Assembly (NCBI GenBank): GCA_973895155.1
Contig: OZ316899.1
Location: forward strand, 15,775,974 to 15,839,973
Direction: 5' to 3'
DNA from: Marsupella aquatica
Taxonomy: Eukaryota; Plantae; Marchantiophyta
Length of the DNA: 64,000 nt
How positions within the stretch are numbered: the first letter of the stretch is position 1; each line of letters begins with the position of its first letter. The notes under the pieces are model-generated. The model was not told the DNA's origin, did no database searches, and saw only the letters and a program-made list of their open reading frames with translations. Positions 2,718 to 57,474 of the stretch are shown in pieces. The translations under genes and the position numbers were made by a program.

Positions 2718-3086
2718 CATATAAATCTATGTACCAAGCTACCATTGCCAATTCCCTTCTGTCTTATAACTTAAGTTGCTTCTCCTTTCCATTTTCAGAA
2801 TGCCAGGCATACGTCTACTTCACAATGCCAAATTTTGCTCAAGAGGCCTGTGATTCACTCATCAACATTCATTGATGTATTGACAGGCTCTTGTGCATTT
2901 TCATGCTTTCTTGTGACTAGGGAAATAAATTAAATATCTTGTCAAATTCAAATCTGACCGTAAGATTGACTCAAACAAATCTAGGCCACTCCATGTAACA
3001 TTTGGTCATTCTTGGTATCCCATGCGTATGTGGCCAAAGAGTCTAGTCCTTTTTGAGGAGAAAAAGGATATCCTTTTAGTACCCCT

Positions 3087-6000
3087 TGTGGTGCGTCCCA
3101 TGGCTCCCTAAACCCAAGAAACCCCTCTGCTCAAGCCAATTCCCGCAGGTTTCGCTCTTGGCGAGGCCGATTTTGCGGCTTAGCGACATGGGACGATGCT
3201 AACTTCCTTCTACTACTATTGCTATTAACATTTTACTCACATATACTGGACAGATCCTTCATTGGGTCATGAGATACGTAGCCGGCCTATTCTCGGCCTT
3301 CCCTTGTCCTCCTCTCTCGATTTTCCTTTAGGTATGTTTGGATTCTGCCGCCGGAATGATCCCCAACTGGCTTGGGTAAGCCGCTAAGACCTCTCTCAGC
3401 TCGACACATCCAACTCTTACTACCTTGCTTACTCCCTTCTTGGTTGATGTGGGCAATCTTCAAACAAGTTAATGCGACACACAAATAGCAAAATGACTCC
3501 TTCTGACTGAGTTATACCATGCACTTGCCATACAAACAATACTTCTCATATACAAGATCTGCGAACTAAGCCGTGAGGCCAACTCTATTCATTTCTTAGG
3601 TATGAGGAAACATGAATATACACAAGGGTCACAGTATAACTAACCGAGAGCTTCTTTAACTACTTGATCCCACCCCTGCTGGTGCACTAAAAACTTGCTA
3701 AGGAAGAAGGCCCTGAACTCCCCGCTGCCCAGGTACTTATCCTGGTAGTGGATCCGCCTAATTCCTTGCAGCATAAGCCTAATCTACCTAACTATAATCT
3801 ACCTATGTACAGCGAGGCAGGAGCACAAGTGTTGCTCTTACTAGTGGATCCGCAATCCCACTAAGCTAAGTGTCAGGGCCGCCCCTTGGTCCTGATCCTA
3901 ATTCTAAACTTGGAGATCTGAGCCCGCCCTGCCCACTCACGCCTCCTCCCTCCATGTCCGCCCTCCTTAAAAGGAGCGGCCCTCCACCGCCGTCATGGCA
4001 GCGGTGTCTGGTCCTCAATGGACGCCCCCAACACTTCCTCCGCAGCCACTACCATAGGTTCGTCCTCTGACAGATTACCTGCTCCTGACCAAGTCAACTC
4101 TCCATCGGCCTGACTGGGTCCATCCTTGGCTTTGGCCTCAGCATCGGCCACGGCCTCCCTGGCATGTTCTAGTGATGGATCCGGTACCCCGGCTTCATCA
4201 CCCCTGCCTTCTAGGGTAGTTGGATCCTCTACCGTGACCCTACCTAAGGTTGGTGTTGGGTTTACCTCCTTGGTCACGACAGCTTGAGGAGCCGTATTAC
4301 TCCCTGACCTAGAAGGTTTCCGCTTCTTCTTCTTTGGTTTGGCAGCTGGCCCCTTCCCCTTGCCACTACCTCCGGCACCGGTGCGAGTGTCTCGGCTTGT
4401 CCTTCGGCCAATACTACACCAGGTAACTTAGTTGCCCCAATTGGAGTTGGTCCTGAGGAAGCCAAGCACTTAAATACTGCGGCCTTTTTCTTTAGCCGCT
4501 CCGTTTGGTTGTCGGCTCGCCGCTGTAAGTTTTCCATCTTCCGCGTGCTTTCCTCCAACTCCTGCAATTCATCTAGGTCCTTGCGCGCCTCCTCCCGCTC
4601 CTTCTGGGCTTCCTCCAATTCCTTCTTTAAGGTCGCCCTCTCCTCCTGGGTTGCTCTCAGCTCCTTGTCGAGCTCCATAACGACCTCAGACTCCATTTTA
4701 TTCATCTTGGCATAAGTCTGGTCGAGCTGGTCGTCTTTCTCGCGGAGGTCGGCCTTGAAGCTGTCCGTCATGGATGCGAGCTCCTGCCGCAGCACGATAA
4801 TCGCCTAATAGGATTTCCCTAACTCGGCCTCCTTCTGCTCAAGGGCTCCGCGGATATCCTCAAGTTCCCCCTTCAGCGCCCTTTCCCTTCTCTGAGTTTC
4901 CGCCATGGCCCGATTGTTGGCTGCTATGTGGGCCTCCTTTGCGTCTCTCAGCTCTCGCTTCCACTTCTCCTTCTCCTTGATCGAATTGGCCAGATCACAT
5001 TGGGTCCGAGTCAATTTATCCTTGATAATCTGATTATCAGACTGCGTAGTATCCAATTGCCCTGCATGATGTTGAGCTCATGCCGCTTAATCCGCAGCTC
5101 ATCTTGGGCTTTCTTGGACGCCTTCAGGTCTTCTACCTCGGCTTCCCTTGCCCTAAGCCGACGGATGACCTCAATCTTGCTTCTTTCCAAAGCCATCACT
5201 TCTTCTAATCGGTGCTTCTCCAACATTTCCCTCTGGAAAAAAGGTCCCTGCTCCAACTCCTCCCCAAAGATGCCAAGCGCAAGTTCCCCACACATCTCCC
5301 CGTACTCCATGGCTCATTCTTTAGCATAGGCGGAGTGAGCAGAAGTCATTGGCATCATCCACCACGGCCTTTGTTCCCAGGCAGCCTTGCAAATTTCTTC
5401 TATCGTGGCTGGCGGGTTGCTTCGTTTTTCTGCAAGCCGCCGAATGTCCTTTGGCCATTCTTCTCTTGGTAAATCCTTCTCCCTTGCCAGGGCTGCCTCC
5501 TCTTCCTCCCTGCGTTGTTCCTGAAACTCCTATGCCGTCTATTTTATGCCGTCAAAACTTGGGGGAGCAACATCTGGTGGGGGAGATTCGGGGCTGCTCT
5601 ACTGGGTCGGGTCCCCTCGAACTACACTTGGAAGAGTGGGGATGAACCTGCCATAGGTCCTTATTCTTGGAACATGATGGTCTGACCCGTAGCCGGAGTC
5701 ATCATTGTCGTAGCCTTCTACCACCTCCTCCTCGGCTTGGACTACCGGCTCCCCCCGTTGCTGTCCTGGTCCTGCCGTGAACACAACCCCACAGATCACG
5801 GGTCTTGGTTCCTCCAACTTCCACGTTGATCTCATCTTCTCCCTGTCGTGACCAGGGGCCTCGGGCTGCTTCTCCTCGGCTTCGGGACTTGAAGCTCCTA
5901 CATACATTCGGACTCCCGGCTCGTGTTCCGGCCTCCTTCTCTCCTTGGCCCCGGTAAAGGGGTTTTCCCTGGTAAGTTGGCTAAGGCCGACTTCGGAAGC

Positions 6001-7736
6001 AATATTCTGTACTGGCCCCGTTGCCGCTGCCGTTCTCCTTTCCTTCTCCAGCAATTTCAGCAGATTCTGCATGCCTGGTTGCTGCATCAGCAAGTCCTCC
6101 TTCCTCGGCCTAAACACCTGCTCGATTGTAGGACTGTCGGGCTGGGTCGGTTTCTCTGTTGCCGGCCTTGGTTCCGGGACCTCCTCTGGTGCTCTTGCCT
6201 GCAGGGGCAGTACCAGGGCAAATATCTGGCTTTGGGCATACCGGCACAACAGCGGCATGTGATAACCAAGCCGGGACACGCTTCCCATGCCGATCACTAG
6301 CTGTTCCTCCTTCAAGATCTTCTTTAGTTGGGTGAGGAGGTACCCGTTGTAGTCTCGGCTTGGGTCTGGCCTCTCCGCCAGATAGACCTGTGCCTTGCCG
6401 ATCTCTGCCCTCGGCAAGTTACAATGCATGGTCACCCGCAAGAAATCAATCATTTCTCCTATGTGCGGGTTGGTGCAGGTGTTTTGGAAGAAGCCATTCT
6501 TTGTTGATGGCCCTGGAAATGACCAAAACGCCTTGTCTGGCAAGGTCTTCCTGGTATCTACTTTGGTCTTATTGCCCATCGGCAAGCCAAATACTTTGGC
6601 AATCACCCGGGGAATGAGATAGAAATCCTTCCCATACACCCTTGTGGAATTGGTCTCGGGCTCACATAATCCCACGAATTCCAGTAAGTCTGAATCCGGC
6701 ACCTCCGGCTTCAGCCATGGTAACTTTACGAATGCTTCCAAGCCGGATCCGGCCATGAAGCCCTGGTATTTCCGAGTCTGCATAGCTGTAAAACATGCAT
6801 CCTCTTCCCACGCAAAGTGTAATTGCACCTCCTCGGGGAGGGTCGCCGCCCAGCCTTTCCAGGTGTCATCTCTTGCTGGAACGGCATTGACGGGGTCGAC
6901 CTCCTCCTCTTCGACTTTCGCCTGCCTCCTGCTTCCCTGCTCTACTGGTTTCCTGGGTGCCACCGACCTCATTCTTTTTGCAGGGGTGGCTTGTTGTTGT
7001 TCCCTTTCCTCTTCATAGCGGCTACCGTGGATGTTTCTCCTAGCACGGTTGCCTTCATCCACCCCTCCGTGCTACCCTTCAACTCCCAGTGTATGTTGTT
7101 GCAGCGGTTGATGGCCTCCCGGATGCCGACTATCTTGTTCTCACAAAACAAAAGATCGTTGAGTTCGTCGGCAGTAGGCATCCACAAGAATTCAGCCGTA
7201 ATGAGTTTTCCTCCTAAGAAAGCAGACTTCTGCAGCTCCCACAGCCAAGCGAGCTCCTGCCGTTCTCAAGCCGCTCTCTTTGATTCTTCGTCCTGGTAGG
7301 TCCCAATGTACTCAGTTGCCCGTTCTAACAGGCATCCCCAAAAATGAGCATCTTGATTGACGTTGCTCATACCCCTCTTGAGTTGATCGTCGGTATCTGC
7401 TTCCACCCCAAGTGCTTGCCTGAGCAGTGGACAGCAGTTGGCCTCCCGTAGTCGTCCGCTTGGCTTGTGTTTGCAAATGAGCCGCCAGTCCTTGCGCTTC
7501 GTCCTTACCCCCCCTTGGCTGATCTTCCTTCCCATTAGTAGCCGCCCGTACTTAGCGCGCCCTAACCCTAATCATGTTTCCCCCGACGTCCTTATCTTCG
7601 GCCTCGGCTTGGGTTCCATAGTCACCCTTAATTGTTTATATTTCCCTATTTTTGTTACTATACTAAGGTGTTTCCTAGGGTACACTCCTGATTTTACTAA
7701 TTAAACTGGCCTAATGATTCCTGGCTAGGCATCACA
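3087..7736 (-). mobile_element. Solo LTR of family B (4650 bp), containing a long ORF
   Basis: Element-strand termini TGTGATGCC...GCACCACA. 5-bp TSD CCCCT at 3082-3086 and 7737-7741. Colinear with 49388-53580, which is followed by a PBS and gag. Confidence 0.88.
3866..7370 (-). pseudogene. Family-B LTR-encoded protein, ~1,150 codons when frameshifts/stops are bridged; plant-transposon accessory-type domain plus long coiled coil
   Basis: ORF pieces 7266..7535, 6969..7187, 5599..7062, 5011..5310, 4805..5056, 4274..4795 and 3993..4277 are colinear and match the copies at 13098-16883 and 49758-52803. Motif GLE..LPW..D..EFV..T..G..FGLP.G; C-terminal heptads. Confidence 0.75.
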
Positions 7737-7741
7737 CCCCT

Positions 7742-8257
7742 CAATCTTGCCATCCACCTTTCTTCAATATCTATGATGTTGTCAACGTTCTTGCAAAGAG
7801 CTTTCACAAGCAAACCAGTCGCAGGATTCAAAATCCCACCCGGTTTTGCAAGAGGATTGGCTTTGTGATTTCTTTTTATTAAATCCTCGGCCATCTTTTC
7901 AGCATTCCTTGAGAAAACTTTTCTACTCTGATGGTTATGTTCACCTATATGAACCGCGAGCCGAGACATGTGACTACAGGTTTCTGTATCAAGTAGGACC
8001 TGTGGATACATATAGAACAAGCGAGCAGGGCAAGAGTCCACACAAAAAGGAATCTGTTCACAATAGTGATATACTATACCACCCTCTTCAATGAACAAAC
8101 CCACCACATGCTGGCCACTAAGCTTAGGGGTACCAGCCCAAGCTTTTGCATTGCATCTCTTCTTTTGCTGAAAGTACTCACCGGCGACCCATGGCAAAAA
8201 AGGCAGAGCAGTAATCCGCCATGTAGCGATAGACAAGAGCAGCAATGACGACGACAA
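7742..8257 (-). pseudogene. Fragment of a MULE-type transposase N-terminal Zn-binding (GCM/WRKY-like) region, cut by the family-B LTR
   Basis: ORF 7697..8257 contains C..SCPARLFY...SRLAVHIGEHNH, a C-x-C...H-x-H pattern typical of MULE DNA-binding domains. The ORF runs into the LTR-B end at 7736. Confidence 0.5.
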
Positions 8258-12685: not shown

Positions 12686-13097
12686 TTCTTCACACAAGTT
12701 GATGCGACACACAACTAGAAAAGATGACTCGTACTGACTAAGTTATACCGTGTAAGTGCCATACAAAGAGTACTTCTCATACACAAGATTTGCAAACTAA
12801 GCCAGAGGCCAACTCTATTAAGCTCTTAGGCATGAGGAAACATGAATATACACAAGAGTCACTGCATAACTAACCAAGAGCTTCTCTGACTAATTGATCC
12901 CAGCCTTGCTGGTGCACTAAAAACTCGCTTAAGAAGATGGCCCTGAAGTCCCCGTTGCACAGGTATTTATCCTGGCAGCGTAGCTACCTATTTCCTTGTT
13001 GTGTAAGCCAAATCTACCTCTAAGTGTAATCTACCTATATACAGCAAGGCAAGAGTACAAGTGTTTCTCTTACCAGTGGATCCGCGATCCCATTAAC

Positions 13098-16000
13098 CTA
13101 AGTGTCAGGGCCACTTTTTGGCCCTGATCCTAATCCTAAATTTGGAGGTCCGTGCCCACTCAGCCCACTCACGCCTCCTACCTCCACGTCCGCCCTCCCT
13201 AAAAGGGACGGCCCCCTCCACTATCACAAACCTGGTGGCTGGCCCTCAAGGACGCCCCCAATCCTTCCGCGGCGGCCAATGTAGTCATCCTGTCCTCTGA
13301 CAGGTTACCCACTCCCAACTAGGTCAACTCATCCTCGACGTGACCAGGCCCCACTCCTACCTTGGCTTTTGCTTCTCCGGCTTGTAATAGTGGTGGGTCC
13401 GCTCCTGTGGCTTTGGCACTGTCAGTCTTTGCATTGGCCATCTTGCCGTAGTGGTCCTCCTCGTAGGCTCGTTCTATGAGTCGGGTTGTCTCGTCTTCCC
13501 AAGGTTGCAGTTGATGCCGATCAATGATTGGCAACCTTGAGTTAGTGCCCGTCATGGGCTCACCCAGCTGGTCTTCTTGGCCTACCTCCAAGACCGCCTC
13601 CTTGACAACCACTACCTCGCATAAGGCCGGTGCCATGCTTTCTACCTCAGCCACGATGGCCTGAGGAACCGTGTTGCTCCCTAACCCGGAAGGTTTTTGC
13701 TTCTTCTTGTCCTTCCCTTCCTAGGCAGCTGGTGCCTTCCCCTTGCCACTTACTTTTGGCAAAGGTGAGGTGCCTTCACTTGTTTGGTCAGTACCACGCC
13801 CTGCAACCCTGCTGCCGCCACCGAGGGTCCACTTGTTGCAGCCTACCAATTTAACTCCTTGGCCAATTTCTTCAGCCATTCCATTTGGTTGTCCGCCCGC
13901 CTCTACAAGTTCTCTAATTTCCGCGTGGCATCCTCAAACTCCTCCTGGGTCTTGTCTAAATCCCCGTGAGCTTCCTCCAACTCCTTCAGGTTTTTGTCCA
14001 ACTCCTTCTGTAAGACCGCTCTCTCCTCCTGGGTTGCTTTCAACTTTGTGTTGAGCTCATGGACGACATCAAACTCTATCTTATTCATCTTCTCGTAGGT
14101 TTGATTGAGCATGTCATCCTTCTTGCGCAGGTTGGCTTGAAAGTTGGCCGACAAGGTTTTGAGGTCCTCCTTCAACTTATCAACGCTCCTGTAGGCCTTA
14201 TCTAAGTTGTCCTTTTTTCTAATGGAAGGCCCTGCAAAATTCTTCAATCTCCTCCTTCAGTGCCCGCTCCTTCCTCTGCGCCTTTGCCATGGCCTTGTTG
14301 CTGATTGTTAGGTGAGCTACCTTTGCATCTTTAAGCTCATGCTTCCACTTCTCCTTCTCCTTGAGAGCCTCGGCCAAATGCCCTTGGGTCTGGGCAAGTT
14401 TATTCTTGATTAATTGGTTCTCAGTCTTGGCTGTATCCAGTTGCCCCTGCATGATGTTTATCTCATGCCTCCTAACCCGCAGCTTGTCTTGAGCCTGCTT
14501 GACTGCCTTTAGATCTTTAGCCTTGGCTTCCTTCTCTCTAAGCCGTTGGATGACCTCCTCATTCTTCATCCTCTCCAAGGCCAGTGCTTCCTCCAACAGG
14601 CTTTTCTCCAATCTCTCCCTATTGAGAAAAGGCCCTGACTCCAACTCCTTGCCAAAGATGTTGAGGACAAGTAATCCGCACATCCTCCTGGACTCGAGGG
14701 CTCTGCCACGTGCATAGGTGGAGTGGTTAGGAGATGCCGACATCTCCCAACGCAGCCTTTGTTCCCAGGTCGCCTTCCAAATCTTATCAAACATGGGCAA
14801 GGGCCCAACTTGGTCCTCTGCAAGCCGCCAAATGTCCTCCGGCCATCCTCCACCTGGCAAATCCTTTTCCTTGGCCAGGGTTGCCCTCTCCAGATCTTTG
14901 AGTCGCTCCTGCAACTCTTGGTCGGCCTTTTTTCTCCCATCGTAATTTGGATGAGGGACGTCAGGTGGGGAAGACTTTGGGCTTCTCTGTTGTTTTGGGT
15001 CCCCACGCACCACTCTTGGAAATGTGGGGACAAAACGGCCACAGGTCCATACCCCTGGTACCGAGCGATCTAACTTGTAGCCAAAGTCATCCTCGTTGTA
15101 TTCCTCCATGCCCTCCCTTCCGGCCTGGAGTACTGGTGCCTGCGGGTTCTCTCTTGGGCTGGCCGCAAACGCAACATCATTTTGGAAACTGTGCATGTGT
15201 GTGGGTCTCTCCTCTTGCTCCCACAGTTGCCTTCCTCTCTCCTCATCATGACTGGGAACCTTGGGCCCTTGTCTCTCGGGTTCTGGTCTTGAGGCTCCCA
15301 CGTACATCCACACCCCTGGCTTGTCTTCCGGCCTCCTTCTCTCTGCGCCCCCGACAAACAGATCTGCTCTGGTAGGTCTTCCGGTTCCTCCCTCCCCAAC
15401 CATACCCTGTACCGGTGCCTTTGTTACCATTGCTGTCTTCTCCTTTTGCAGCATCTGCAAGAGGTTTTGCATGGCCGGTTGATGCATTGGCATGGGTTCC
15501 GGCGTCGGCCTAAAGATTTGCAATATTGTGGGGTTGTCGGGCAGTTCAGGCTTCCTTGCTACCGGCCTTGGTTCTGACTCCTCCTCTGGCGCCCGTGCCT
15601 ACAGGGGGAGTATTGGTGCAAAGGTCTGGCTCCGGGCATACCAGCACAACAACGGCATGTGATAACCAAGCCGGGACACGCTCCCTTGGCCTACCACTTG
15701 TTGTTCCTCCTTCAAGATCTCTTTAGTTGGGTGAGGAGGTACCCATTGTAGTCCTGGCTTGGTCTGGCCTCTCTGCCAGGTAAACATGTGCCTTGCCAAT
15801 CTCCGGTCTTGGCTCAGGGGTCTCACTATATGGGGACCTCCCCATCGCCTGCAACGTTTTTAGGCCTCGGACCCCCTAAAATGTAAGAAATGTTTTTAAT
15901 TTTTTAACCCCTATAAAGTTGGAATATTCTTGGAATATTCTAAAAATTGGATTAAAAAGACCCTAATATTCTTATAAGTCTCAAAATTGAATTTAAAAGA

Positions 16001-16883
16001 CTCTATTGTTCTTCTACAAAAATTCTTAAGTCTTCCCTTAGAACCAATAAAATGACCCTATCCTTTGTCGCACGTGATATGCCATTTTTGTGGAAGTGAA
16101 ACCCCCGACGGTCTTGGTAGGTTGCAATGCATTGTCACCCGCAAGAAATCAATCATTTTTCCAATGTGTGGGTTGGTGCAGGTGTTTTGGAAGAAGCCAT
16201 TCTTTGTTGATGGCCCGAGGAACAATCCAAACTCCTTCTTTGGCAAGTTCTTCCAGGTGTCTACCTTGGTCTTGTTGCCCATCGGCAAGCCAAATACTTT
16301 GGCAATCACCTTGGGAGTGAGATAGAAGTCCCTCCCGTAGATGTTGGTTGAGGTGGACTCATGGTCCCATGATCCAACAAATTCCAGCAAGTTTGATTCC
16401 GGCACCTCCGGCTTTAGCCACGACAATCTAACAACCCGATCTGGCCATGAAGCCTTGGTATTTTTTGGTCTACATGGCTGGTAAAAATGCATTCTCATCC
16501 CGTGCAAAATATAACTGCATTGCCGGTGGTAGGACCGCCGCCCAACCCTTCCATGTATCATCTTTGGTAGGGATGGCATTGACTGGGTCGACCTCATGTT
16601 CCTTGACTGCCTCTTGCCTCTATCTTGATCCCTTGCTTGGCTAACTTTCTTGATGCCACCGACCTTGTTTTTTTGGCCGGTGTGGCTTTGTCGGTGTTGG
16701 CCATCTTCTTTTTCATTTTGGCAGCTCTTGACGACTCCCCCAACATTGTTGCTTTTGTTCACACCTCCGTGCAACCCTTTAGGTCCCAATGTTTGTCGTT
16801 GCAGTTGTTGATGGCCTCCTGGATGCCAACAATTCTGTCCTCTCAAAATAGAAGATCGTCGAGCTGATCGGGAGTAGAAGTCC
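13098..16883 (-). pseudogene. Family-B LTR-encoded protein, copy 2 (disrupted)
   Basis: ORFs 16058..16885, 14219..15523, 13903..14247 and 13319..13654 match the copy-1 and copy-3 peptides. Confidence 0.75.
15813..16109. mobile_element. ~296-bp MITE
   Basis: Absent from the other two B copies. Imperfect 14-15-bp TIRs TCAGGGGTCTCACT / AGTGAAACCCCCGA. Flanking direct repeat (C)GGTCTTGG of 8-10 bp. AT-rich non-coding interior. Confidence 0.85.
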
Positions 16884-18199
16884 AATCGCAGAACTCGACT
16901 ACCTTAATGCTTAGCTCCAGCGTCGCTCACTTTGATGCCAAGCTCCCTTATGGTCCAGGCCCGGATAGGCCATCCGGGGAGGACTTAGCATGGGGAGACT
17001 CGTGGGCAATGAGACGTGGTACTACCAAAGGCAAGGAGCCAAGCTGGTGACACACACTAACGACTTAGGCAAGCTGAGAGCTGGTCAGGTCAAGGGGAAA
17101 GGGGCTGGACTCAAGGTTGACCATTCGGGCCCCTGGAAGGACTTTGAGTTTTGAGGGCTTGAGTGTGAGCTGCTTTTGGGCCCAAGGCCAATGGAGTTGA
17201 TGCCATGGGCAACGGACGCTTGGGGCGTGAGTTATGGCCCGATCCGGGACCCCAAGCGGCAATGTGACCTGAGGGCCTAGGCATGAGCACTGGGTTGGAC
17301 TGATCACAACGGGCTAAGGCACTTCGGTTGCGGACACCTAACAAGAAAGTTCTGGGCGTTGACAGTTGGTGGTGCGCCCAATATGCACGATAGGTCCGGG
17401 TTGGAGGCCAAATGTTTAGGGACCAAAGTTGGTCCGGGGGTGGCAGGTCTCCAGAAGCATATATGAGGGGAGTGGTGTCTCCCTGGGGCCAAGGGCGAGC
17501 CAAAGTCAAGGCCAAGGGCGAGCCAAAGCTCAGATGGGTCTGGGGGCGCCATGGGTTCTCGAGGTTTGCGGGTGTTAGCTCTCCCGCTTGCCAAATCCTA
17601 CCGCGTTCAGTCTCCCAAGGGAGTTTGTGTTGGGGAGGCAAGGCCAAGTAGGCGTGGAGGTTGAGTTCCAAGGGTGTTTGGCCCCTAGACCATCAGTGGA
17701 GAGAGAACTGAGAGTTGGTTGCTAGAGTCGGGGCCGTTAGGATAAGCTACGCTATTTGGGCCATGAGCATGTCCTGGGGTCAGGACGGTCAGTTGGTGAT
17801 GGATGGGTACGAGTGGGAACCCGGGCCGTGCCCAAGGAAGGAGTTGTTCTGGACAAACAATGGGCGTGGGTTCTGGTTCTAGCTTATGGCATCGGGAGGA
17901 CCTATCGCTAACCAATTTACCTACGTCTGTTGAGCTTGAGTTAGGATTCTAGACTTGGCAAGTTCTAGATCCTGAAGGGTTACTTACCGATGTGCTTGGT
18001 TGCTTGTGCAAATAGTGAGGACCGTTGAGTATTGGTTGTGTTGGAGAGCAAGTGCAGCTTTGTGTGGGAGGGGCCGCTTGCGGTGCAAGGGGCACTAGGT
18101 TGCTTGATTGAGGTATTTTGTGGAGGCGTTTGGGCACCAGGGGCACTTAGGCGTGAGTGCTGTGATTGGTGAGGGCATTGGGTGGCAAGTTCCACCACT
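16884..18199 (+). repeat. 5' LTR of the family-A element (internal deletions)
   Basis: Starts AATCGCAGAACTCGACTACC (consensus AGTCGCGGAACTCGACTACC), ends TCCACCACT, and is followed by the PBS. Confidence 0.9.
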
Positions 18200-33263: not shown

Positions 33264-33511
33264 CCGGCCCATTTCCCCTTGACCCGACCAGCTATCCGCT
33301 AGTTCAAGTCCTTAGTGTGTGTCCCCAGCTTGGCTCCTTGCCTTGCTAGTGCCACGTCTCATTGCCCGCAAGTCTCCCCATGCTAAGCCCTCCTCGGATG
33401 GCCTATCCGAGCCTGGACCATAAGGGAGCTCGGCGTCGGAGTCAACAACGCCGGAGCTAAGTGTTAAGGTAGTCGAGTTCCGCAATTGGTGGCTAGGTCC
33501 ACCACTTAGTT

Positions 33512-34454: not shown

Positions 34455-34812
34455 TGTGACGTCGCCGGTACGGCGGTTAATGAGTGATTCAGTCTAACTG
34501 CGCTCGGCACGCGCGTTAGGTGGGTCTTAGGCCGCTATTATTAGCATAACGACAGTATTTAGGTAATCATTAGGGGTAGGACATCATTAGGCAATAAGGG
34601 GGACTTCAGGTTCGGGCTGGCGGCGGGTCGCTATTCGCACACCCGGGTTACGAGCGTGGAGGGGCCCCTCCCTCGGGTCCGTATAACGAACTTAAGGAAG
34701 CGGCCACTGACGCACGCTGACTCAGACCGGCGGAGTGGCCGGTACACCACAAGCGTGAGCGGTTCAACCTATGGGCGTCGAGGAGACGTCGGGGATCGAC
34801 AAGCCCTCAAAG

Positions 34813-34819
34813 TATAAAA
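34813..34819 (+). promoter_or_regulatory. TATA box upstream of the family-C ORF
   Basis: GTATAAAAG ~108 bp before the ATG at 34921; the same motif at the same spacing is in copy 2 (57120-57126, minus). Confidence 0.6.
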
Positions 34820-34920
34820 GGGGAGCCAACCCTTTGTAGTGCACCAGTCCATCAGTTCGCGCGCCAGCTTCGACCCCAGCTCTCTCGTTCTCTCTAGGTC
34901 GCCACTACTATCTCCTCTGA

Positions 34921-37569
34921 ATGTCGCACACAATCCTCTCCAGCTCGGCCATTCGATTCTGGACGCAGTTCCTATCTACCGGAAGGCACTTGGCCGATTC
35001 ATTGAAACACGCCAACCCGCGCCGATACGAGATCGAACGCGAATACGAGAGAGCCATCCGCCTAGCAGGATGACACCACTACGTCCTTAACTTTGACTAC
35101 CCGTCTCAGAGCGAGCTTTACCGACCAGCTGAGGTATCTGGGTACTTCTTCAACGGAGACAAATATATCGGGTTCTGGGAAGCATTGCTTCGGCTTCCGG
35201 ACGAGGTCTTCAATATCCCGGGTACAATCGACCTGCAGCGACATCACTTCGACCACATCCCTGCCCAGGTTCGGGCTGTCATTAACGGCGAGTCCAGTAC
35301 CAACCGTTCGACAAGGGCGTCCACACTCGCTTCGGAGAACTTCTACCAGCACCTGCAGAGCTTCATGGGAACTCGGCCATCAACCAACATGACCAACTCA
35401 GCCGGACCTGTACCCGTACCCGTACCCGTGCCCATGCAACCCCAGCCTCAACTTCAGCTTCAGCCTCAGCCGCAGCCTAGCCAAACCCCACCACCTATCA
35501 CCCAGCCAGCATAGGTACGCTCCGTCATCAACGCTGTGGATCTTAGCGATGACGACGAGGCTACCCCACCCTTGACCAGGCGGCCCAGAGGAACAAGCGC
35601 GCGGGGGGCCGACACTATATCGTCCCCACCCCCTGCTCTGACCCCAGGAGCGGCCCCAGCAGACAACATAGTGACCGTGGCCGCCCCGGGCCCGTTACCA
35701 ACCGCAGTGGCACTCCCCAGGCCCGATCGGGAGGATGGGGAAGTATCACCTTCCCCGAGTCAGTCACGGGGAAAGAAGAGGAAGGAATCCGCCACTGCAT
35801 CCGGGTTACCGTTGGCCACGGTAGCCGTAGCCAAGGTGACGATGCATCGCATGGGGGAAAACGTTCATAGCAACATCCTCCATCCCAAGCATGCGGTGTA
35901 CCTGAAGACTCAGGGATTTGAGCACCTCACCTCTCTCCCCTGGAACACTTGCAGGTACTACGGGGAGGACATGACAGAATTCGTCAAGAATTATGACGAC
36001 GTACGTCAACAGACTCGGCTGCGGGGAAGGAATATGTCCCTCACAGAAGAATGGCTGAAGATGATCTTTGGGTTACCCGAAGGTGACCATCGAGTCGAAT
36101 CACGGGCTCCCGGGGGCAAGGGGGCCAAGTACCAATCTTCAAGTTTTCCCTCAGAGGGATCAGTAGACAACGGGTTCGTGATGAGGACCTGCCTCATGCC
36201 CGAGATAGCTGAGCGGCTGGAGTTCCAGAGGTACGCTCTCCACATGATGGAACCCCGGGGGGAGATCTCCGCCGCCCAGGTTATCCAGGTCGAGGACTAT
36301 CGACCTAGGAAATGGGCATCGTACTTTGCTAAGAAATTCCATGAAGAGATGGAGCGGCGAAGGAAGACGCTGTACATTGGCGGGAAGGCGTATTTCGCTA
36401 GCCATATCGAAATCATTCTTGAGTGGTACGCCCGGTTTGATCGACGAACCCTTCCCCGCATCAACGTTACAAAGCTGGTCCCAGCTAGGTGGGTTTTTCC
36501 GGCATTGGAGAGACGGCCCCAACCCGAGGCCCGAAGTCCAGTGGACACGCCAGCTTCACCCACCCCACCTCCACAAATAGCTGTAATCGTAACCGAGGAG
36601 GCGCCGGAGGGGTCGGTCGTCGCAACCGTTGATGCGACCCAACTAGTCGGGCTAAGTACAGAAGTTGGTACGGCAGAGGTCTTACCCGAACCCGGGTCTC
36701 CCAAGGACCCGCCGGTGGCAATTCCGGAGAACCGGACATCGCTGCAGGAGGACACTCCAGCCCCTTCCAACGTTATGTCCCCAGGGCTGGACGTCACTGC
36801 CCCGGCCCCTGCGCGTGTTGATGTCTGCCCGTGCCCAAATCCGGACAGGCACAACTTGGACCACCCGGAACTCTTCGTACAGGGTACGTTTCTGAACGGG
36901 CTTCTGGGAGATTTCTCTCATCAAATTGCCCGGGATACCGGGGAGTTCATGGCCCGGAAGGTAGCCTGTTTCTTCAATCAGGAGTTGGTTGCCGCCGTAA
37001 AGGCAGGTCGGGCCCAGTCGGAGGCCCTTCAGAGGATAGAGCGGTACCGGGTGGAGTCCGTGTACCTAAAGAACGAAGTGGCGGCTCAAGAGGCTGAGCT
37101 TCTGCAACTACGACCCAAGGTTGCAGCCGCCGATGAGTTGTTAGCAAAGGCGTACGCTCTTACCGCCCTAGCCGAACAGGCCAAAGCTGGGAACGAGGCC
37201 GAGATTACACGACTCCGGAACCAGATTGACAGTTTGAAGAAACAAGCTGTCACCTGGCAAAAAGACCTGGAGGAGGCCGAGGAGCGAGCCCAGCGGGACG
37301 CGACGGAGATAGCCACGCTGCAGGCCGAGATGGCGCGGCTCCAAACCGAGGCCGAGAAGCAGGACCAGCTGGCGAGTAAACTGACGAGCGACGCCCAGCA
37401 GCTGGAGGAGGCATGTCAGGAGGCAGCAGAGGAGACGGACACGGGGAGGCGAGAGAACGAATCTCTGCTGGACCAGGTCCAGCTCCTCAAAGCGGACAAT
37501 GACAGGCTTCGAAGGCAGCGGGATGGCCGTTCCCATTCGGGCGGCTCTGGCAAGCGTGCCAGGCATTAG
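34921..37569 (+). pseudogene. Family-C encoded protein, 882 codons with only two premature stops; homologous to the family-B protein
   Basis: ATG 34921, ORF 35185..35514 and ORF 35536..37569 are all in one frame. Stops are TGA at 35071 and TAG at 35512. The N-terminus MSHTILSSSAIRFW is conserved in copy 2 (MSVTITSSFAICFW). C-terminal coiled coil and basic tail. Confidence 0.8.
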
Positions 37570-38472
37570 CGGCGGAGTAGGAATAGATTAGGATTAGGAT
37601 TGGCTTAGTCAAGCTCTTGGGACAGGCACCTGCCTTAGGTACAGCAGCGCTGCCCTGCTGTCCAGCCTGCGTAGATTAGGATCTTCTAATAAGACACAGC
37701 CGTTTTCCGGCCTGACTGTCAGCTTAGTTAGGACCTTAGTCAGCGAATCTTCGGCGAGAGGACACCCCGTTCCTCGGCTCTTAGTATTTAGTGCACCCCT
37801 CTGTAGAGGCAAGGGGGGGTTTTTAGTTTCAGAGTCGAACATCCACGGGACATGTGGGGAGTCCTGACCTCTGGGAATGACAGAGTACCAAGGGGAGGGG
37901 GTAGGACTAAGCTCGTCGGGCGAGTGCGGAGCCGGGCTCCGTTGTAGTGTGCACCCTCGGTCTTGAACCTGTGCATTCCAGGGCTGTCGTGTCAACTAAG
38001 TGTACGCATATGTTCCCTTTGTAGTAAAATCCTTTCCCATCATTTTCCTTCGTGTAAATCGAGATTGTATGCATGTGTGCGCATATGTGTGTGGGCTTCT
38101 CGTATATGGGTGGCAGCGCCAGGCCGAATGCACTACCCGAGACGTGCACAGGGTGCAGCCTGCGGGTAAGTGGTTGCGAGCACGGGTTGAGGACCTGTAT
38201 CATCGAATCCGGATCGAAGGCGGACAGCACGAAGGCTTAGAAGCCCTTAAGCCGGGGTCGATCCTGCTATCGACTAAGGTACGTTCCGGCGGCGGAACAC
38301 AAACCATACCTAGGAGGTGTCCGTATTTAGCAGTATGCGCACTTAGCGCTAGTTTATGAGAATAAGGTGCATTACGTGCTTCCCTTCCTGCCCGAACCCT
38401 CAGATTTACGAGGGATGTGCCCGTCTAAGCTGAAGTCTGAGTTAAGGCCGAAGCCTACGACGTGACAACAAG

Positions 38473-41869: not shown

Positions 41870-41882
41870 AAGGGGGGGGGGG
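41870..41882 (+). promoter_or_regulatory. Polypurine tract of element A
   Basis: AA followed by a G11 run, 4 nt before the 3' LTR. Confidence 0.85.
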
Positions 41883-41886
41883 TGCA

Positions 41887-44839: not shown

Positions 44840-45056
44840 TGAAGCTTCCTCCCATGCGAGCTTGACAAGCGATTTGTCTTGGCTATCCCATTTCGTTGTA
44901 GATGACTCGGTAGGCCTATTGGGAACTTACTTAGTTATACTTAAATCCAATCAAATAATGTATTGCACCCAAAATAGACGTAAACAAGAAGGCATCTATC
45001 AGGGAAGGTAGTTGACATGGATAGCCCAATAGAGATTGACTATTCCATCCAGATGG

Positions 45057-49387: not shown

Positions 49388-52300
49388 TGTGATGCCTAGC
49401 CAGGAATCACTAGGCCGCATAAAAGGTAAAACCAGGTGGTATACAATAAACCATTGGTATAAGGAGGAAAAAACAAGAAAACATAAACAATTAAGGGTAC
49501 ACATGCAACCCAAGCCAAGGCCAGAAGTAAAAGGCGTAACGGCCACTAAGGGGCACGCTAAGTATCAGCGGCTATAGGTAATCAATAACCAAGACAAGCA
49601 GCGGCAGGCTAGAGGGGGGGGTAAGGGAGGTTCACCACGAGTGACGGCTCACATTCGCACATAGATTGAGAAGATTACGAGCATAAGCCAACGACTGTCA
49701 GCCGCGAAGGTGAACACGGTGGGCATAACCAGATACCAAGCAACAACAAAGGAGGGAATGAGCAACATCAATCAAGCGGCACATTTCTAGGGATGCCTGT
49801 TCGAACGGGCAAGTGAGTACATTGGGACCTACGAGGAGGAAGAGTCAAAAAGAGCAGCCCGCAAACAATAAGAGCTTTCTTGGCTGTGGGAATTGCAGAA
49901 GTCGACCTTCTTAGGAGGAGAGCTCATCAAGGCTGAGTTCTTGTGGACACCTACTGCCGATGAGCTCAACAATCTTCTAATTTGAGAGAACAAAATCATC
50001 GGCATTTGGCGGGCCATCAACAACTGCAACAACAAACACTGGGACCTAAAGGGTTGTACAGAGGCATGGACAAAAGCAACAGTGTTGGGGGAGTTGTCAG
50101 GAGCGGCCGAAAGGAAAAGGAAGATGGCCAACAACAAAGAAATCACACCGGCCAAAAGGACAAGGTTGGCAGCATCAAGAAGGCCGGCCCAGCCCAGCAA
50201 GGGAGGCATAGGGAGGAGGAAGCCGAGGAACAAGAGGTCAACCCAGTCAATGCCACTCCTACCAGAGATGACACATGGAAGGGTTGGGCGACAATAATAC
50301 CACAAGCAGTGCAACTACATTTTTCACGAGAGGAGGATGCATGCTTTACAGCCACGCAGACCAAAAAATATCAAGGCTTCATGGTCGGATCGGGCTTGGA
50401 AACCTTTGTTAGATTGCCGTGGCTAAAGCTGAAGGTGCCAGAATCAGACTTGCTGGAATTTGTGGGATCATGGGACCACAAGTCCAGCTCAACCAAGATC
50501 TACAAAAGGGACTTCTATCTCACTCCCAAGGTGATAGCTGAAGTATTTGGCTTGCCAATGGGCAACAAGACCAAGGTAGACACTCGGAAGAACTTGTCGG
50601 ACAAGGAGTTTAGATTGTTCCTTGGGCCATCAACGAAGAATGGCTTCTTCCAAAACACCTGCACCAACCTGCACATTGGAGAAATGATTGATTTCTTGTG
50701 GGTAACAATGCATTGCAACTTGCCGAGACCAAAGATCGGCAAGGCACAGGTTTACCTGGTAGAGAGGCCAGACCCAAGTCGGGACTACAACGGGTACCTC
50801 CTCAACCAATTGAAGAAAATATTGAGGGAGGAACAGCAAGTGATAAGCCAGGGGAGCATGTCTTGGCTTGGTTATCATATGCCGCTATTGTGCCGGTATG
50901 CCCAAAGTCAGATCTTTGCGCCAATACTCCCCCTGCAGGCAAGGGCGCCGGATGAGGCGTCGGAGCCGAGGCCTGCAGCAAGGAAGCCCAAACCACCCGG
51001 CAGCCCCACAATAGCATAGATCTTTAGGCCAACGCCGGGAGCCATGCCGATGCAGCAACCAGCTATGCAGAGCCTCTTGCACATGCTGTAGAAGGAGAAG
51101 ACGGCAATCGTAGCAGAGGCACCAGCCCAGGGCATGGTTGGGGTGGGAAGCATTGGAAGACCCACCAGAGCAGATTTGTTTGTCAGGGCTGCAGAGAGAA
51201 GGAGGCTGGAAGACGAGCTGGGGGTGCGGACGTCCGTGGGGGCCTCAAGACCAGAACCAGAAGGACAAGGGCCCAGGGTTCCTAGTCATGATGAGGAGAG
51301 AAGAAGGCAGGTGTGCAAGTCGGAGGAGAGAATCACACACCTGCACAGTTGCCGGCAAGATGCCGCACTCGCGGATAGCCCCCAAGGGGATCCGCAGGCA
51401 CTGGTAATCCAGGCCGGAAGGGAGAGCGTGGAGGACTACCACAAGGAGGACTTTGGCTATGGGTCATATTGTTTGGTACCAGGGTGTGGACCTATGGCCG
51501 TTTCATCCCCACCCTTCCAAGAGTGGTGCGTGGGGACCCACAACAACAGAGAAGGTTGGAGTCTCCCCCACCAGACGTTCCTCCTCCAAATTACGATGGG
51601 AGAAAACAAGCCGACGAGGAGCAACAGGAGAGACTCCGAGATTTGGAGAGGGCAACCCTAGCCAAGGAGAAGGATTTGCCAAGCGGAGGATGGCCAGAGG
51701 ACATTTGGCGGCTTGCAGAGGACCAAGCCGGGCCCTTGCCCACGTTTGACAAGATTTGGATGGCGGCATGGGAACAAAGGCCGCGTTGGGAGATGCTGGC
51801 ATCTCCTAACTACTCCACCTATGCAGGTTCCAAAGCCCTGGAGTATGGGAGGATGTGCGGACTACTTGCCCTCAACATCTTTGGGGAAGAGTTGGAGACG
51901 GAGCCTTTTGTCTACAGATGTTGGAGAGAAGCCGGTTGGAGGAAGCACTAGCCTTGGAGAGGATGAAGAAGGAGGAAGTCATCCGACGGCTTAGAGAGAA
52001 GGAAGTTGAGGCTGGAGATTTAAAGGGGCCAAGCAAGCCCAGGACAAGCTGCGGGTTAGAAAGCATGAGATAAGCATCATGCAGGGGCAACTGGCCTAGA
52101 CCTAGGGGGATTTGGCCGAGGCCCTTAAGGAGAAGGAGAAGTGGAAGCAAGAGCTTAAAAATGCAGAAGCATCTCACCTCATGGTCATCAACAAAGCCAT
52201 GGCCGAGGCGCAGAGGAAGGATCGGGCACTGAAGGAGGAGATCAAAGAATTCCGGACGACCCTCCATAAAAAAGATGACTTAGATGAGGGCTACAGGAGC

Positions 52301-53580
52301 GTCGACAAGCTAAAGGAGGACCTCAAAACCCTATCGGCCAATTGTCAAGCCAAACTGCATAAGAAGGATGACATGCTCGATCAAACCTACGAGAAGATGA
52401 ATAAGATAGAGTTTGATGTCATCTAGGAGCTCAATGCAGAGCTCAAAGCAAACCAGGAGGAGAGGGCGGCCTTATGGAAGGAGTTGGATGAAAGCCTGAA
52501 GGAGTTGGAGGAAGATTGCGGGGATTTGGATGAGACCCTAGAAGAGTTGGAGGACACCACACAGAAATTAGAGAACATGCAGAGGCGGGCAGACAACCAA
52601 ACGGATCAGCTGAAGAAACTGTCCGAGGAGTTAAATCGGTAGGCAGCAGCAAGTGAACCCCCGATGGTGGCAACGAGGTTGCAGGGTGTGGTCCTAACCG
52701 AGTGATAGGCCAAGGTACCCTCACCTTTGCTGGAAGTAAGTGGCAAGGGGAAGGCACCGGCTCTTTGGGAAGGGAAGGACGAAGAAGCAGCCCTGACACT
52801 TAGATTAGTGGGATTGCGGATCCGCTGGTAAGAGCAACACTTGTGCTCTTGCCCCGCTGTACATAGGTAGATTCCAATTAGAGGTAGATTTGGCTTACGC
52901 AGCAAGGAAATAGGTAGGTGCGTTGCCAGGATAAATACCTGTGCAAGCGGGGACTTGGGGGGCCTTCTTCATAAGCAAGTTTTTAGTGCACCAGCAAGGC
53001 TAGGATCAATTAGTAAAGAGAAGCTCTTGGTTAGTTATGTAGTGACCCTTGTGTATATTGATGTGTCCTCATGCCTAAGAGATGAATAGAGTTGGCTTTT
53101 TGGCTTAGTTTGTAGACCTTGTTTATGAGAAGTACTCATTGTACGGCAATGGCATGGTATAACTTAGTCAGTAGGAGTCATCTTTCTAGTTGTGTGTCGC
53201 ATCAACTTGTGTGAAGATTGCCCACATCAACTACAGGAGAGAAAGGAAGGTTAGAAGCAGGGAGAGTTGGATGTGTTGAACTGAGAAGGATCCAACCGGC
53301 TACCCAAGCCGATTGGGCATCATTCCGGGGGCAGAATCCAAACATGCCTGAAGGGAGACCAATAGAAGAGAGTAAGGAGAGGCCGAGAATAGGCCGGGTG
53401 CATATCTCATGACCCGGTGAAGGATCTATCTAGTATATGTGGTTAAAAAGCTAGTAGAGTAGAGTTAGCAGCGTCCCATGCCGACAAGCCGCGGAACCGG
53501 CCTTGGTAGGAGCAAAACCGGTGGGAATCGGCTTGTTCAAGTCGGGTTCGTGGGTTTAGGGTGTCATGGGATGCACCACA
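49388..53580 (+). mobile_element. Family-B 5' LTR (copy 3, 4193 bp)
   Basis: TGTGATGCC...GCACCACA, immediately followed by a PBS and gag; a deletion near 52790 makes it shorter than copy 1. Confidence 0.9.
49758..52803 (+). pseudogene. Family-B LTR-encoded protein, copy 3 (disrupted), same strand as gag
   Basis: ATG 49758 (MSNINQAAHF; copy 1 MSNVNQDAHF); ORF pieces 49982..51019, 51134..51661, 51469..51951 and 52112..52426. Confidence 0.78.
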
Positions 53581-53584: not shown

Positions 53585-53602
53585 TGGCGCTAGATGGAGG
53601 GG
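53585..53602 (+). promoter_or_regulatory. Primer-binding site, probably tRNA-Asn
   Basis: TGGCGCTAGATGGAGGGG 4 nt after the LTR end. It is one mismatch from the complement of the plant tRNA-Asn 3' end as I recall it (TGGCGCTAGAAGGAGGGG). Confidence 0.75.
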
Positions 53603-53872: not shown

Positions 53873-54570
53873 ATGGGGGAACCAGAGGCACGACCAGGCC
53901 AGAGGAGAGGAACCAGGCTAAGTCAACAATTGTGCATCCATTACAAGGCATTTCATGGCAGAGGAGATGAGGATCCTGATGAATGGTTGGATGATTTTGA
54001 AGGGACCGCTGCAGCAAATGGAGAGTCAGCCATTAGGATGCAGATCCTGCCCAACTTGTTCAAAGGTGAGGCAAGACCGTGGTACAGAGCACTAGATGTT
54101 GAGGAACAAGGTGACTGGGAACTCTTCAAATCATTGTTTGTCAAGGAGTTTTGACCCATTGGAACCTCAAAATTGGCAGTACTGAAGTTAGGACAACTTT
54201 GGTTCAAGGAGAACAAGTCCTTCCGGAAGTTCTTACAACGCTTCCAAAAGCTGGTAAGACGTACAAAGACCAATGCATCGAAAGGTATGCAACTTCAATG
54301 GTTAGTAAATGCGTTACCACAGAAGATGAGCTTTGCAATTAGGAAGGAAAACCCTGAGACCTTAGCCAATGCAGTTAGAGATATCCATTTATATATTAAT
54401 GCAGATATCACCAGCGAGAAGAAATAGTTCAAATCAGGGAGCTCATCATCTGATGAAGGATTGACCAAGAAGAAGAAAATAAAAATAAAAATTCCAAGAA
54501 GCCAAGAAGTGACAACTCAAGCTCGGATAGTGAAAGTAGCAAGAGTGAGTCCTCTTCTAGCTCTGAGGAA
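53873..54570 (+). pseudogene. gag: Family-B gag (truncated)
   Basis: FHGRGDEDPDEWLDDF...LFKGEARPWY...W..FK..F..EF retrotransposon-gag motif. Confidence 0.82.
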
Positions 54571-54571: not shown

Positions 54572-57474
54572 AAGTTGGTCTTGCTTTGTGGCTTCTTCTA
54601 GAAGCCATGCCACCTCCGCCTTAAGGGCGCCAATCTTTGCAGTTTCTCTGTGGGCCCGGGCATCAGTGTCCTTTGCATCCTTCTGCCAAGTGAGAGCTTG
54701 TCCTTTTAGGCTGTCAATCTGCGCCCAAAGCCGAGCAATCTCCGCATCCTTCCCGGCTCCGGCTTGTGTAGCTAAGGCTGCCTTGGCTTTGGCCTCAGTG
54801 ATCTGGGCCAAAGCGGTCGCGAGCTAGGGCTGAAGAAGCTGAAGCTCGGTCTCTCAATCCGAGGCTTCATCCAAAAGTTGGGTTGCCTCAACGCAATACT
54901 GCTCAATCCTCCTTGTGGCTTTGGACTGTGCTCGTCCTGCTCATACCGCCGCACCAGTTCTTGGCTAAAGAAGTACGCCATCTTTTGGGCCATAAACAAC
55001 CCAACGTCTCAACCAACTTTTGCAGAGAAGTTGTTAAGAAACCCATTCAAAAATGTACCCAAAGCAATGTATTTTGGGTTCATTAGGTCATGGCTGCTGG
55101 CTCTTGGGCACTGCCCTCCTTCTATTTGGGTGGGGGCGGGGTGGATAAATCCAACTCCAGAGTGACAAAGACTAGGGTAGCTGGATCCGCAAAGGATGGG
55201 GGTTCCGTTAGTGCTGCCATGGGGGATGTAAGGGCTTCCTTGGCAGGGGCTACCGGCTCAAGATCAGCTTCAACAAGGTCGATTGCGATGGTGGCTTGAG
55301 CTTGGTTCTATGCGTCTAAGGTCGCAATGACTGCTGCGTCCAGTACGGAAGGAGGGGATTCAGTGGTTGACTACAAGGTCAAGGTAGGGGCGAAAGCCAT
55401 GGGTGCTGGGCTTTGGGCCTTGGGTTGGGGCCATCTCTCTTGAGCCAAAAAGACCCACCTGGCCGGGATGAGTTTGGGCTTGTTGCACCGAGGAAGGGTT
55501 TGGCGATCAAAACGGGCATACCACTCTATGATAATCTCTATGTGGCTTGCAAGGTATGTCTTTCCCACAAGGTACAAGGTCTTCCTTTGTTGTTCCATCT
55601 CCTCGTGGAACTTCTTCATGAAGAAAGAAGCCCACTTCCTAGGGCCGGTAGTTTTTGACCTGAATCACCGAGGTGGCGGATATCTCTCCCCGCGGCTCCA
55701 TCATGTGGAGCGCATAACTCTAGAACTCCAACCATTCTACTATCTCCGGGATGAGGCATGTTTGCATGAGGAAGCCGTTGTCCACCAATCCCTCGGACGA
55801 GAAGCTAGAGGACTGGTACTTGGCTCCCTTGCCCCCTGGTGTCCGTGATTCTACCCAATCTGATCCTTTGGGTAGGCCAAAGATGAGCTTCAGCCATGCC
55901 TTGTTCAAGGACATCACTCGTCTGTGAGCATAGGTCTATTGTTGGGATTTGTCAAAGTTCTAGATGAACTCTGTCATGTCTTGCCCATAGTACTTGTAGG
56001 TGTTCCAAGGGAGAGCGGCAAGGTGCTCAAACCCTTGGGTTTTTAGGTAACCTGCATGCTTTGGGTGGAGAATGTTTTTGTGGACATTCTCCCCCATTTG
56101 ATGCATGCTTAATTTGGCCACTACAATGGTGGCCACGGGTAAGCCCGATACTGAAGCCAGCTCCTTTTGCTTCTTACCCCAGGATCTGGGGTGACTCATT
56201 GAGGGGGACAACTCCTTGTCTTCCTTATCCCGTGGTGGCTAAATTGCTACCACTATAATTGGTACTGGTGTTGGGGCCGCAACCGTCACTGTGTTGTCTA
56301 CCGGGGATGCCTCTCGGGTTTGGGCTTGTTGAGGTGGTGGTGTATTACCCATCCCGGGTCAACGAGCTCCCGGAGGTTTGCGGATAAGTGGTGGAGGAAC
56401 TTCCTCATCCTCCAAGCTCAGGTTGACCACACTCACCACGAATTGCACCCAAGCGAATGGTGCAATCAGTGGCAGAGAGCGGCTGGAGGGTGCTTGGGGC
56501 GGCATCTGCGCCTGTCCTAGCACTGGTGAGTTGGCCGTAGGTGCTGCTGGAGGAGGTGCCATGGGACCTAGAGTTCCTAATGGGAAGCCAAGTGATGCTG
56601 AGATTGACGATGGTCCGCTCGGGTTCGGCCTATTACCAAACCGACAGTCAAGGAAGGCCTGCACCCTAGCGGGTATGTCGTCAAAGTGATAACGTTGTAA
56701 GTCCGTCGTGTCAGGGATCTTGAAAACCTCATTCGGGAGTTAGAGGAGTGCTTCTCCAAAACCTAGGTACTTGGTCCCCTTGAAGAAGAACTCAGAGATC
56801 TTAGTGTCCTGACAGTACTTGCTCTCAAACGGAAGGTTGAGGTTGTTGTTGTAATGAGAGCGCCTGTTCAACCGGATAAGTTGTTTGTAATGCCTTTTGG
56901 CATTGTACTTCCGCTGGTTGTGCTCAGCAAGTGAGGTCGCAAGATTGTTACCAATGCACAGAAGTTGGTACCAAAAGCAAATAGCAAAACTGGACGTAAT
57001 TGTGACAGACATATTGCAAAGTTTCAAGGGCTTGCTAAATTACTAAGTACGCAAAGGTGTCGGGCTCAAAGCTTGCGCAAGGAGAGAACTGGTGAACCCC
57101 ATACGGGGAAGGGTCCATCTTTTATACCCCTGCCTTGCCTTGATCAATTGGCTCCTCTTGTTCATGATAGGCCGGGCTTGTCATGCTCGAGGCTTACCAA
57201 TCACTCCTTCCGTCCGGGTCAGAGCGTGGCAGATAGCTGCCTCCGGATCAGTTATATGGATCCAAGGCGGACAGCCATAACGCGCCTTTAATCCAGTGGT
57301 ATGTCAGGTGCTGTGCGTCAGCCTGATTATGAACTCCCATTATTACTAAAACCTATCCTAAGCATCATGACTAGCTAATGTTGTGTCTTTATGCTAATAA
57401 CTATGGATTCCTAAGTCTACTTCATTCGTGCGTAACATGGATTACTCATTACCAGCCGTGCTGGTGGTGCCACA
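54572..57474 (-). mobile_element. Diverged, truncated family-C element (copy 2) with disrupted ORF starting at 57012
   Basis: Terminus TGTGGCACCACCAGCACGGCTGGTAATGAG matches the copy-1 start. Peptides MGENVHKNILHPKH, ESRTPGGKGAKYQSSSF and AEIARLWAQIDSLK match 35536..37569. Confidence 0.85.

Follow-up and report, generated by a model that had tools for sequence, protein, structure and literature searches.

Plant retrotransposons commonly carry accessory open reading frames (ORFs) of unknown function, which have been described as internal (PMC7264820, PMC6317226, PMC11963269, PMC3485330; here and throughout, the relevant passages of a cited source are meant), and the formation of a solo long terminal repeat (LTR) is regarded as removing all coding capacity. 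In this article, I will discuss a 64,000-nucleotide stretch of the liverwort Marsupella aquatica (contig OZ316899.1, positions 15,775,974 to 15,839,973, forward strand; "the window") in which a 4.65-kb LTR, termed unit A, appears to contain a gene of its own. Athila ORF1/Transposase_32, Ogre PMD-A and Retand TRP28 resemble its product in being accessory proteins with a globular domain, disorder, a coiled coil and basic stretches, and LTRs in the plant non-chromovirus gypsy group to which these elements belong reach ~5 kb (PMC6317226); their ORFs, however, are internal and occur once per element (PMC7264820, PMC11963269), whereas the gene of unit A lies inside the LTR. Similarly, Retrosat2, RIRE3 and RIRE8 have LTRs of >3 kb, many solo LTRs and an extra ORF0, but the latter is described upstream of gag-pol, with the LTRs counted apart, and is not placed in the LTR (PMC3485330). 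Coding sequence within an LTR, and hence doubled in the provirus, is found in the mouse mammary tumour virus (MMTV) sag gene (the whole ORF in U3) and in human immunodeficiency virus 1 (HIV-1) nef (partly in U3) (PMC12789967), but these are retroviruses, sag is a membrane protein, and no sequence relation is expected. Lastly, VANC21 of VANDAL21, an Arabidopsis Mutator-like DNA transposon (PDB 9LNJ/9LNK), is a coiled-coil transposon accessory protein whose fold resembles the modeled core of a second LTR family in the window; here the context is a bryophyte retrotransposon, the identity is 9%, neither a DUF1985 match nor a tandem motif array was found, and the protein is known from sequence and a model.

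The explanation that I consider probable is that unit A is an LTR with a sense-oriented gene of ~1,125 codons, whose product has a predicted VANC/PMD-type DNA-binding core and a coiled coil and would serve its own family as a nuclear anti-silencing or trans-activating factor. The gene-in-LTR architecture itself can be held with high confidence. The features of the unit are as follows.

3087..7736, minus strand: unit A, a solo LTR with TG...CA ends, 4,650 bp, with an empty-site joint and an abrupt change in depth at each end
3082..3086, no strand: left target-site duplication CCCCT
7737..7741, no strand: right target-site duplication CCCCT
7371..7736, minus strand: non-coding stretch of 366 bp at the 5' end of the LTR
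3087..3992, minus strand: 3' non-coding part of the LTR, 81-85% identity among copies, rich in UGUA/AAUGAA, a candidate 3' untranslated region, poly(A) region and U5

On the minus strand the unit starts with TGTGATGC and ends with GCACCACA, with 7 of 8 terminal bases inverted, and CCCCT stands on both flanks, a 5-bp match that would arise by chance at ~0.001; TG...CA ends with 5-bp duplications are the LTR signature (PMC6317226). The empty site is represented by a single contig from the public run X2, which joins 3080 to 7736 and skips 4,655 bases (26 letters on the shorter side), and a reading frame without a Pfam match in the flanks (7742-8290 and 2720-3086, minus strand) is interrupted by unit A and resumes across the duplication. 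Since the flanks are joined in this contig and their frame is continuous, unit A represents a single insertion flanked by a genuine 5-bp duplication, in line with the solo LTR proposed in a preliminary description of this DNA. The AGGGG ahead of its TG was considered as a polypurine tract (PPT) and rejected, being the target duplication, which recurs on the far side, with the empty site observed as well. No internal direct repeats were detected in units A and B (blastn, word size 7, E 0.01).

Self-comparison of the window uncovered two further copies of the family, and one of them adjoins other retrotransposon sequence.

49388..53580, plus strand: copy B, the 5' LTR of a truncated element, ~450 bp of the ORF 3' end missing
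53585..53602, plus strand: primer-binding site (PBS) TGGCGCTAGATGGAGGGG, 4 bases after the terminal CA of copy B
53882..54460, plus strand: gag with a Retrotrans_gag domain (PF03732, E 5.3e-9), truncated by unit E
12687..16884, minus strand: copy C, a partial LTR with both ends lost, interrupted at 15814-16109

Copy B is 69-80% identical to unit A, has the same TG start and the same CA end, and its flanks are unequal (GCCTC and TTTTT), that is, it has no target duplication; its terminal CA is followed by 4 bases, TGGCGCTAGATGGAGGGG and Retrotrans_gag, with no other LTR end ahead. Because a copy without a duplication leads directly into a PBS and gag, as the preliminary description had reported, the sequence shared by units A and B is an LTR, and its ORF is in sense orientation relative to gag. 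I take TGGCGCTAGATGGAGGGG to be a tRNA-Asn-type PBS, as in non-chromovirus gypsy elements; there are no tRNA genes in the 64-kb window for comparison. The element carrying an A-type LTR is likely a Ty3/gypsy retrotransposon, to which only Retrotrans_gag and the PBS type point, the pol of element B being absent from the window. Across the units, TG...CA ends with a short inverted repeat are found in A, B and D (the last a member of the second family), the 5-bp duplication in A and D, and a PBS followed by gag in B only. Copy C contains, at 15814-16109, an AT-rich insert of ~296 bp with short inverted termini and a duplication of 8 bp, GGTCTTGG, resembling a miniature inverted-repeat transposable element.

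Sequencing contigs from four public runs, representing two coded organisms and two studies, extend the boundary evidence to the family. All 28 bins inside unit A are covered far above the flank bins (in run X1 a summed depth of 15,099-724,005 vs 456 and 2,361), although this summed contig depth cannot be read as a copy number. At the 5' end, X1 depth falls from 42,375 to 2,627 to 372 over 7735-7743, with a like drop in the other three runs, and beyond 7736 the contig letters are mixed, with an agreement of 0.48-0.56. This depth drop, together with the disagreeing letters beyond it, indicates that many insertions have a common 5' terminus (4 of 4 runs). Among the 15 of 127 joints listed, none deletes the ORF at more than single-locus depth.

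The gene occupies most of the LTR.

3993..7370, minus strand: decayed ORF inside the LTR, ~1,125 codons, interrupted by premature stops at 7268, 5601, 5541, 5532, 5316 and 4807
near 6993-6940, 5060, 4835 and 4368, minus strand: frame breaks in the ORF, ~5 in all
7070..7370, minus strand: N-terminal domain, ratio of nonsynonymous to synonymous substitution (dN/dS) 0.15-0.17
6218..6855, minus strand: conserved core domain, dN/dS 0.13 (A-B) and 0.21 (A-C)
4430..5200, minus strand: long coiled-coil-like region with sub-cutoff matches to coiled-coil families, then a basic KPKKKKRK near 4335

Conservation between A and B begins at the ATG at 7370 and the stop at 3995-3993 is common to A and C, which gives ~1,125 codons in unit A, so that the single long ancestral sense ORF of the preliminary description was upheld and its length of 1,150 codons was not; the MMTV sag and HIV-1 nef ORFs are much shorter. 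The whole ORF span is present in the solo LTR, but as a decayed gene (6 premature stops, ~5 frame breaks) and not as a working version of the complete cassette that had been claimed. Most premature stops are unique to one copy, which fits decay following insertion. The proposed comparison of copies gave a dN/dS of 0.24 for A-B (confidence interval 0.19-0.29, 905 codons) and 0.31 for A-C (0.26-0.38, 997 codons), neither near 1, and values of 0.13-0.47 in 11 of 11 segment comparisons with data, versus 0.86-1.26 in frames shifted by one or two bases; the LTR ORF was under purifying selection along its length. Its domains run in the order N-terminal domain, basic linker, ~210-residue core, disordered region, long coiled-coil-like region and basic stretch, of which KPKKKKRK is presumably a nuclear signal. 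The maximum 19-residue hydropathy (KD19) over five A segments, D and the homologue P0022 was 1.14, with no transmembrane stretch, and the transmembrane helix expected of an env-like membrane protein is thus missing.

Outside the ORF, the 900 bp of 3' non-coding sequence are far better conserved (distance ~0.2) than synonymous sites (~1.0), a pattern that points to essential cis-elements in the tail. UGUA clusters lie at positions 4115-4203 of unit A and 3489-3612 of unit D, while the predicted RNA fold of the LTR end (z -1.5) and Rfam (a single match at chance level) provided nothing further. As a separate observation, the 3' tails of A, B, C and D have a single TAGTGCACC each, and a further one lies 25 bases downstream of the TATA box of D (positions 3680-3700, 34836-34848 and 37783-37793), with none in either ORF; it could be a shared cis-element.

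A second, distant family in the same window appears to have the same anatomy.

34455..38467, plus strand: unit D, solo-LTR-like, TGTGACGTCG...CGACGTGACA, duplication ACAAG, 4,013 bp
34813..34820, plus strand: TATA box GTATAAAAG, conserved between D and E, ~110 bp ahead of the ATG
34921..37569, plus strand: single-frame ORF of unit D with 882 codons, interrupted by premature stops at 35071 and 35512
54575..57474, minus strand: unit E, another family D copy, which keeps its 5' end but lacks the 3' end

The cores of D and A are 27% identical over 182 residues (E 2e-19), and between D and E the synonymous sites are saturated and the core has a pN/pS (proportions of nonsynonymous and synonymous differences) of 0.19. 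Ends, duplication and homology suggest that family D is an LTR family as well, and clean termini with duplications in two distant families argue for the same gene-in-LTR arrangement in both. Unit D sits between the gag and protease of an unrelated gypsy element (33500-44845, plus strand) with gag, protease, reverse transcriptase-RNase H-integrase and an end that looks chromodomain-like by eye; near 41870 it has a G-rich PPT, and its long LTR-like repeat contains internal tandem duplications. At 54575 the gag of copy B runs straight into the broken-off 3' end of unit E, so that a deletion took both the pol of B and the end of E. Unit E was also considered as an internal antisense ORF of element B, and this was rejected, as unit E starts with the family D LTR start.

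Searching 1.84 billion sequence representatives returned 14 matches at E <= 0.001; among the 10 looked up, two carried an organism name, both being unnamed products of the liverwort Calypogeia fissa. P0022, a stop-free homologue of 787 aa, has its domains in the same order; a profile built solely from 10 outside proteins recovers the core from all five window copies, A to E (E <= 4.5e-29); and the N-terminal domain of A gave a weak full-length match (E 1.2e-4, two-sequence search) to that of the second family and its homologues. Word-index protein searches added nothing new (A core, 0 of 630 longer proteins; D core, 0 of 707; alignment A1, 1 of 7,994, itself an alignment member), nor did the PDB sequence search (0 matches), the metagenome scan with P0022 (74 pattern matches, 0 confirmed) or that with the exact 22-base LTR start (no match). 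The Transposase_32/PMD-like center anticipated in the preliminary description gained partial backing: DUF1985, PMD, Transposase_28/32 and ATHILA gave no match in Pfam, while ESM Atlas leads for the core of the homologue P0009 were Transposase_32 (0.84), ATHILA (0.83) and PMD (0.80), all below 0.9 and therefore leads only (8 of 10 best share a family or clan), and the D-core fold resembles the related VANC/PMD.

It is this fold that proposes a function. A structure model with the D core first among 19 sequences reached a predicted local distance difference test score (pLDDT) of 86.7 and a predicted template modeling score (pTM) of 0.85, and with it DNA-bound VANC21 ranked first both in Foldseek (E 0.1, prob 0.85, TMq 0.51; the next match at prob 0.03) and in VIA-align against 48,161 chains (Z 7.7, root-mean-square deviation 4.3, 200 of 214 residues aligned, 9% identity), where only 3 chains reach Z 2 and the runner-up has Z 2.2; a viral fold library gave no match at E 0.001. 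The match covers the whole D core domain and stands alone, and is of moderate strength. Of what marks a VANC protein, the fold is found in the family D core model; the DUF1985 signature is missing, and so is the VANDAL DNA-transposon context, because of the LTR context and the 5-bp duplication. VANC and MAIN/PMD have a common fold (PMC13547354), PMD-A is encoded by gypsy elements (PMC5418596), a relationship links Transposase_32 with Athila ORF1 (PMC11728184), and for VANC and Athila-domain proteins oligomerisation via coiled coils is predicted (PMC13547354; bioRxiv 2024.09.27.615353). VANC21 binds a 9-base motif arrayed in a single orientation in the non-coding parts of its own element (PMC5735166). 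In the LTRs discussed here, sense-strand TTAG ranks 1-4 of 256 4-mers in 6 non-coding regions vs 19 and 31 in two control repeats; as evidence for target sites this is weak, the motif being picked post hoc and missing from the 5' part of copy B, which was left out of the ranking. On balance, a VANC-like role for the LTR-encoded protein is slightly favored.

Several observations weigh against all or part of this reading. Regarding the LTR, a PBS-gag junction is present in copy B only and family D has none; among the window copies there is no element bounded by a pair of these LTRs, and no PPT junction was recovered beyond 7736. Regarding the gene, the window holds no intact copy, all three A-family copies (A, B and C) being broken; two premature stops coincide in B and C (unit A coordinates 7145 and 4465), so that loss or shortening of the gene in this sub-lineage may have preceded its copying; and the TATAAA at LTR position 97 of unit A, ahead of the ORF, is not conserved in copy B. 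Regarding the function, a model with the A core first was poor (pLDDT 45.8) and matched nothing, so that the confident model is that of family D; Z 7.7 falls in the tool's unclear range (below 8 a match can be a common arrangement), at 9% identity and a Foldseek E of 0.1; Pfam gave no match for the segments of A, B, C and D, nor for the 16 members of the alignment; arrays of 6-8-mer motifs in the non-coding LTR parts were not significant in 8 of 9 tests; and a common fold shows no function.

These last points leave some room for an LTR-encoded gene with another job, namely a nuclear or particle-associated scaffold for integration targeting, nuclear import or RNA handling, with no part in anti-silencing. 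I consider this unlikely, if worth keeping in view: coiled coil and disorder make up over half of the protein, the fold match is moderate, there are no clear motif arrays, and the host PMD proteins MAIN and MAIL1 are described as silencing factors (PMC5418596), but the only solved structure that matches, an anti-silencing factor bound to DNA, does so over the entire core, and VANC21 likewise has a predicted coiled coil (PMC13547354). Far less probable is that the unit is a self-contained non-autonomous element and not an LTR, with copy B standing before the PBS and gag by chance or rearrangement; the lack of a two-LTR element or PPT junction, the single PBS junction and the occurrence of VANC in DNA transposons would suit it, yet copy B lacks a duplication, its CA lies exactly 4 bases before an 18-base PBS-like site with no other LTR end ahead, and TG...CA with a 5-bp duplication is the signature of LTRs (PMC6317226). 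A reading of the ORF as a normal accessory ORF from the interior of short-LTR elements, with A, B and D as rearranged derivatives, is hardly credible, although all the plant accessory ORFs described in PMC7264820, PMC6317226 and PMC11963269 are placed between the LTRs, given the absence of internal direct repeats, the clean termini with duplications in two distant families, the 5' end common to many copies and a PBS that follows the ORF instead of preceding it.

Returning to the LTR-borne VANC-like gene, a mechanism can be outlined. Reverse transcription copies the LTR to both ends of an element, and LTR-LTR recombination leaves one LTR. Since the identical LTRs made in this way would bring two gene copies per element, full elements would carry the gene twice and recombination would keep one copy, as the preliminary description had supposed. 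The gene would have its own promoter in the first 350-450 bp (with a TATA box conserved between D and E but not between A and B) and its transcript would end in the conserved 3' tail with its poly(A) signals, so that a promoter at the 5' end and poly(A) at the 3' end would make each LTR a transcription unit; the ORF would preferably lie in U3, with a second promoter in the tail, or alternatively in a very long R. The protein is envisaged to oligomerise by its coiled coil and to bind short same-strand motifs in the non-coding LTR parts, which would keep the LTRs unmethylated or active, and young solo LTRs could supply the factor in trans until decayed. Its likeliest origin would be an internal sense accessory ORF absorbed into U3 as the plus-strand priming site moved upstream. 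It is possible, though I advance it only tentatively, that an old bryophyte retrotransposon lineage moved an entire VANC-fold anti-silencing gene, together with promoter, terminator and target sites, into its LTR and thereby created a self-contained positive-feedback unit.

A selected gene of ~1,100 codons inside an LTR, in two families whose cores are 27% identical, breaks the rule that accessory ORFs are internal and that a solo LTR retains no coding capacity, and such genes are missed by annotation tools that take LTRs as non-coding. With the fold link to VANC21, a class of accessory proteins of retrotransposons acquires a concrete function that can be tested. Furthermore, the gene and its fold link bear on the origin of PMD/VANC, since the choice between a gypsy element and a host gene is left open in PMC5418596 while PMC13547354 favors the capture of a host MAIN-like gene; if the reading is true, the VANC/PMD/Transposase_32 fold would be present in bryophyte retroelements, favoring a retrotransposon origin of the fold. 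Likewise if true, LTR-LTR recombination, the main route by which a host removes retrotransposons, would leave behind working anti-silencing genes able to reactivate the family in trans. Phrase searches of the open literature, in the passages retrieved (with Repbase, subscription journals and supplements outside their scope), found no plant retrotransposon with a gene inside its LTR nor one in which a VANC-fold protein has been shown to act against silencing; the supplements of PMC6317226 list accessory ORFs and could bear on this, and PMC13468544, PMC12885004, PMC12859917, PMC12844716 and bioRxiv 2026.08.24.746577 held nothing further on novelty.

The window also contains other remnants. Decayed frames at 29109-29711 (plus strand) and 45400-49387 (minus strand) have a sub-cutoff N6_N4_Mtase match (E 3.8e-4), which may reflect a gene resembling bacterial-type DNA methyltransferases among the plant repeats; liverworts have N4-methylcytosine methyltransferases. 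The second of these stretches adjoins element B, its frame reaching the first base of B, and contains a motif seen by eye that I take to be ParB-like. Finally, 61766-64000 (minus strand) encodes a copia-type reverse transcriptase (RVT_2, E 9.5e-45).

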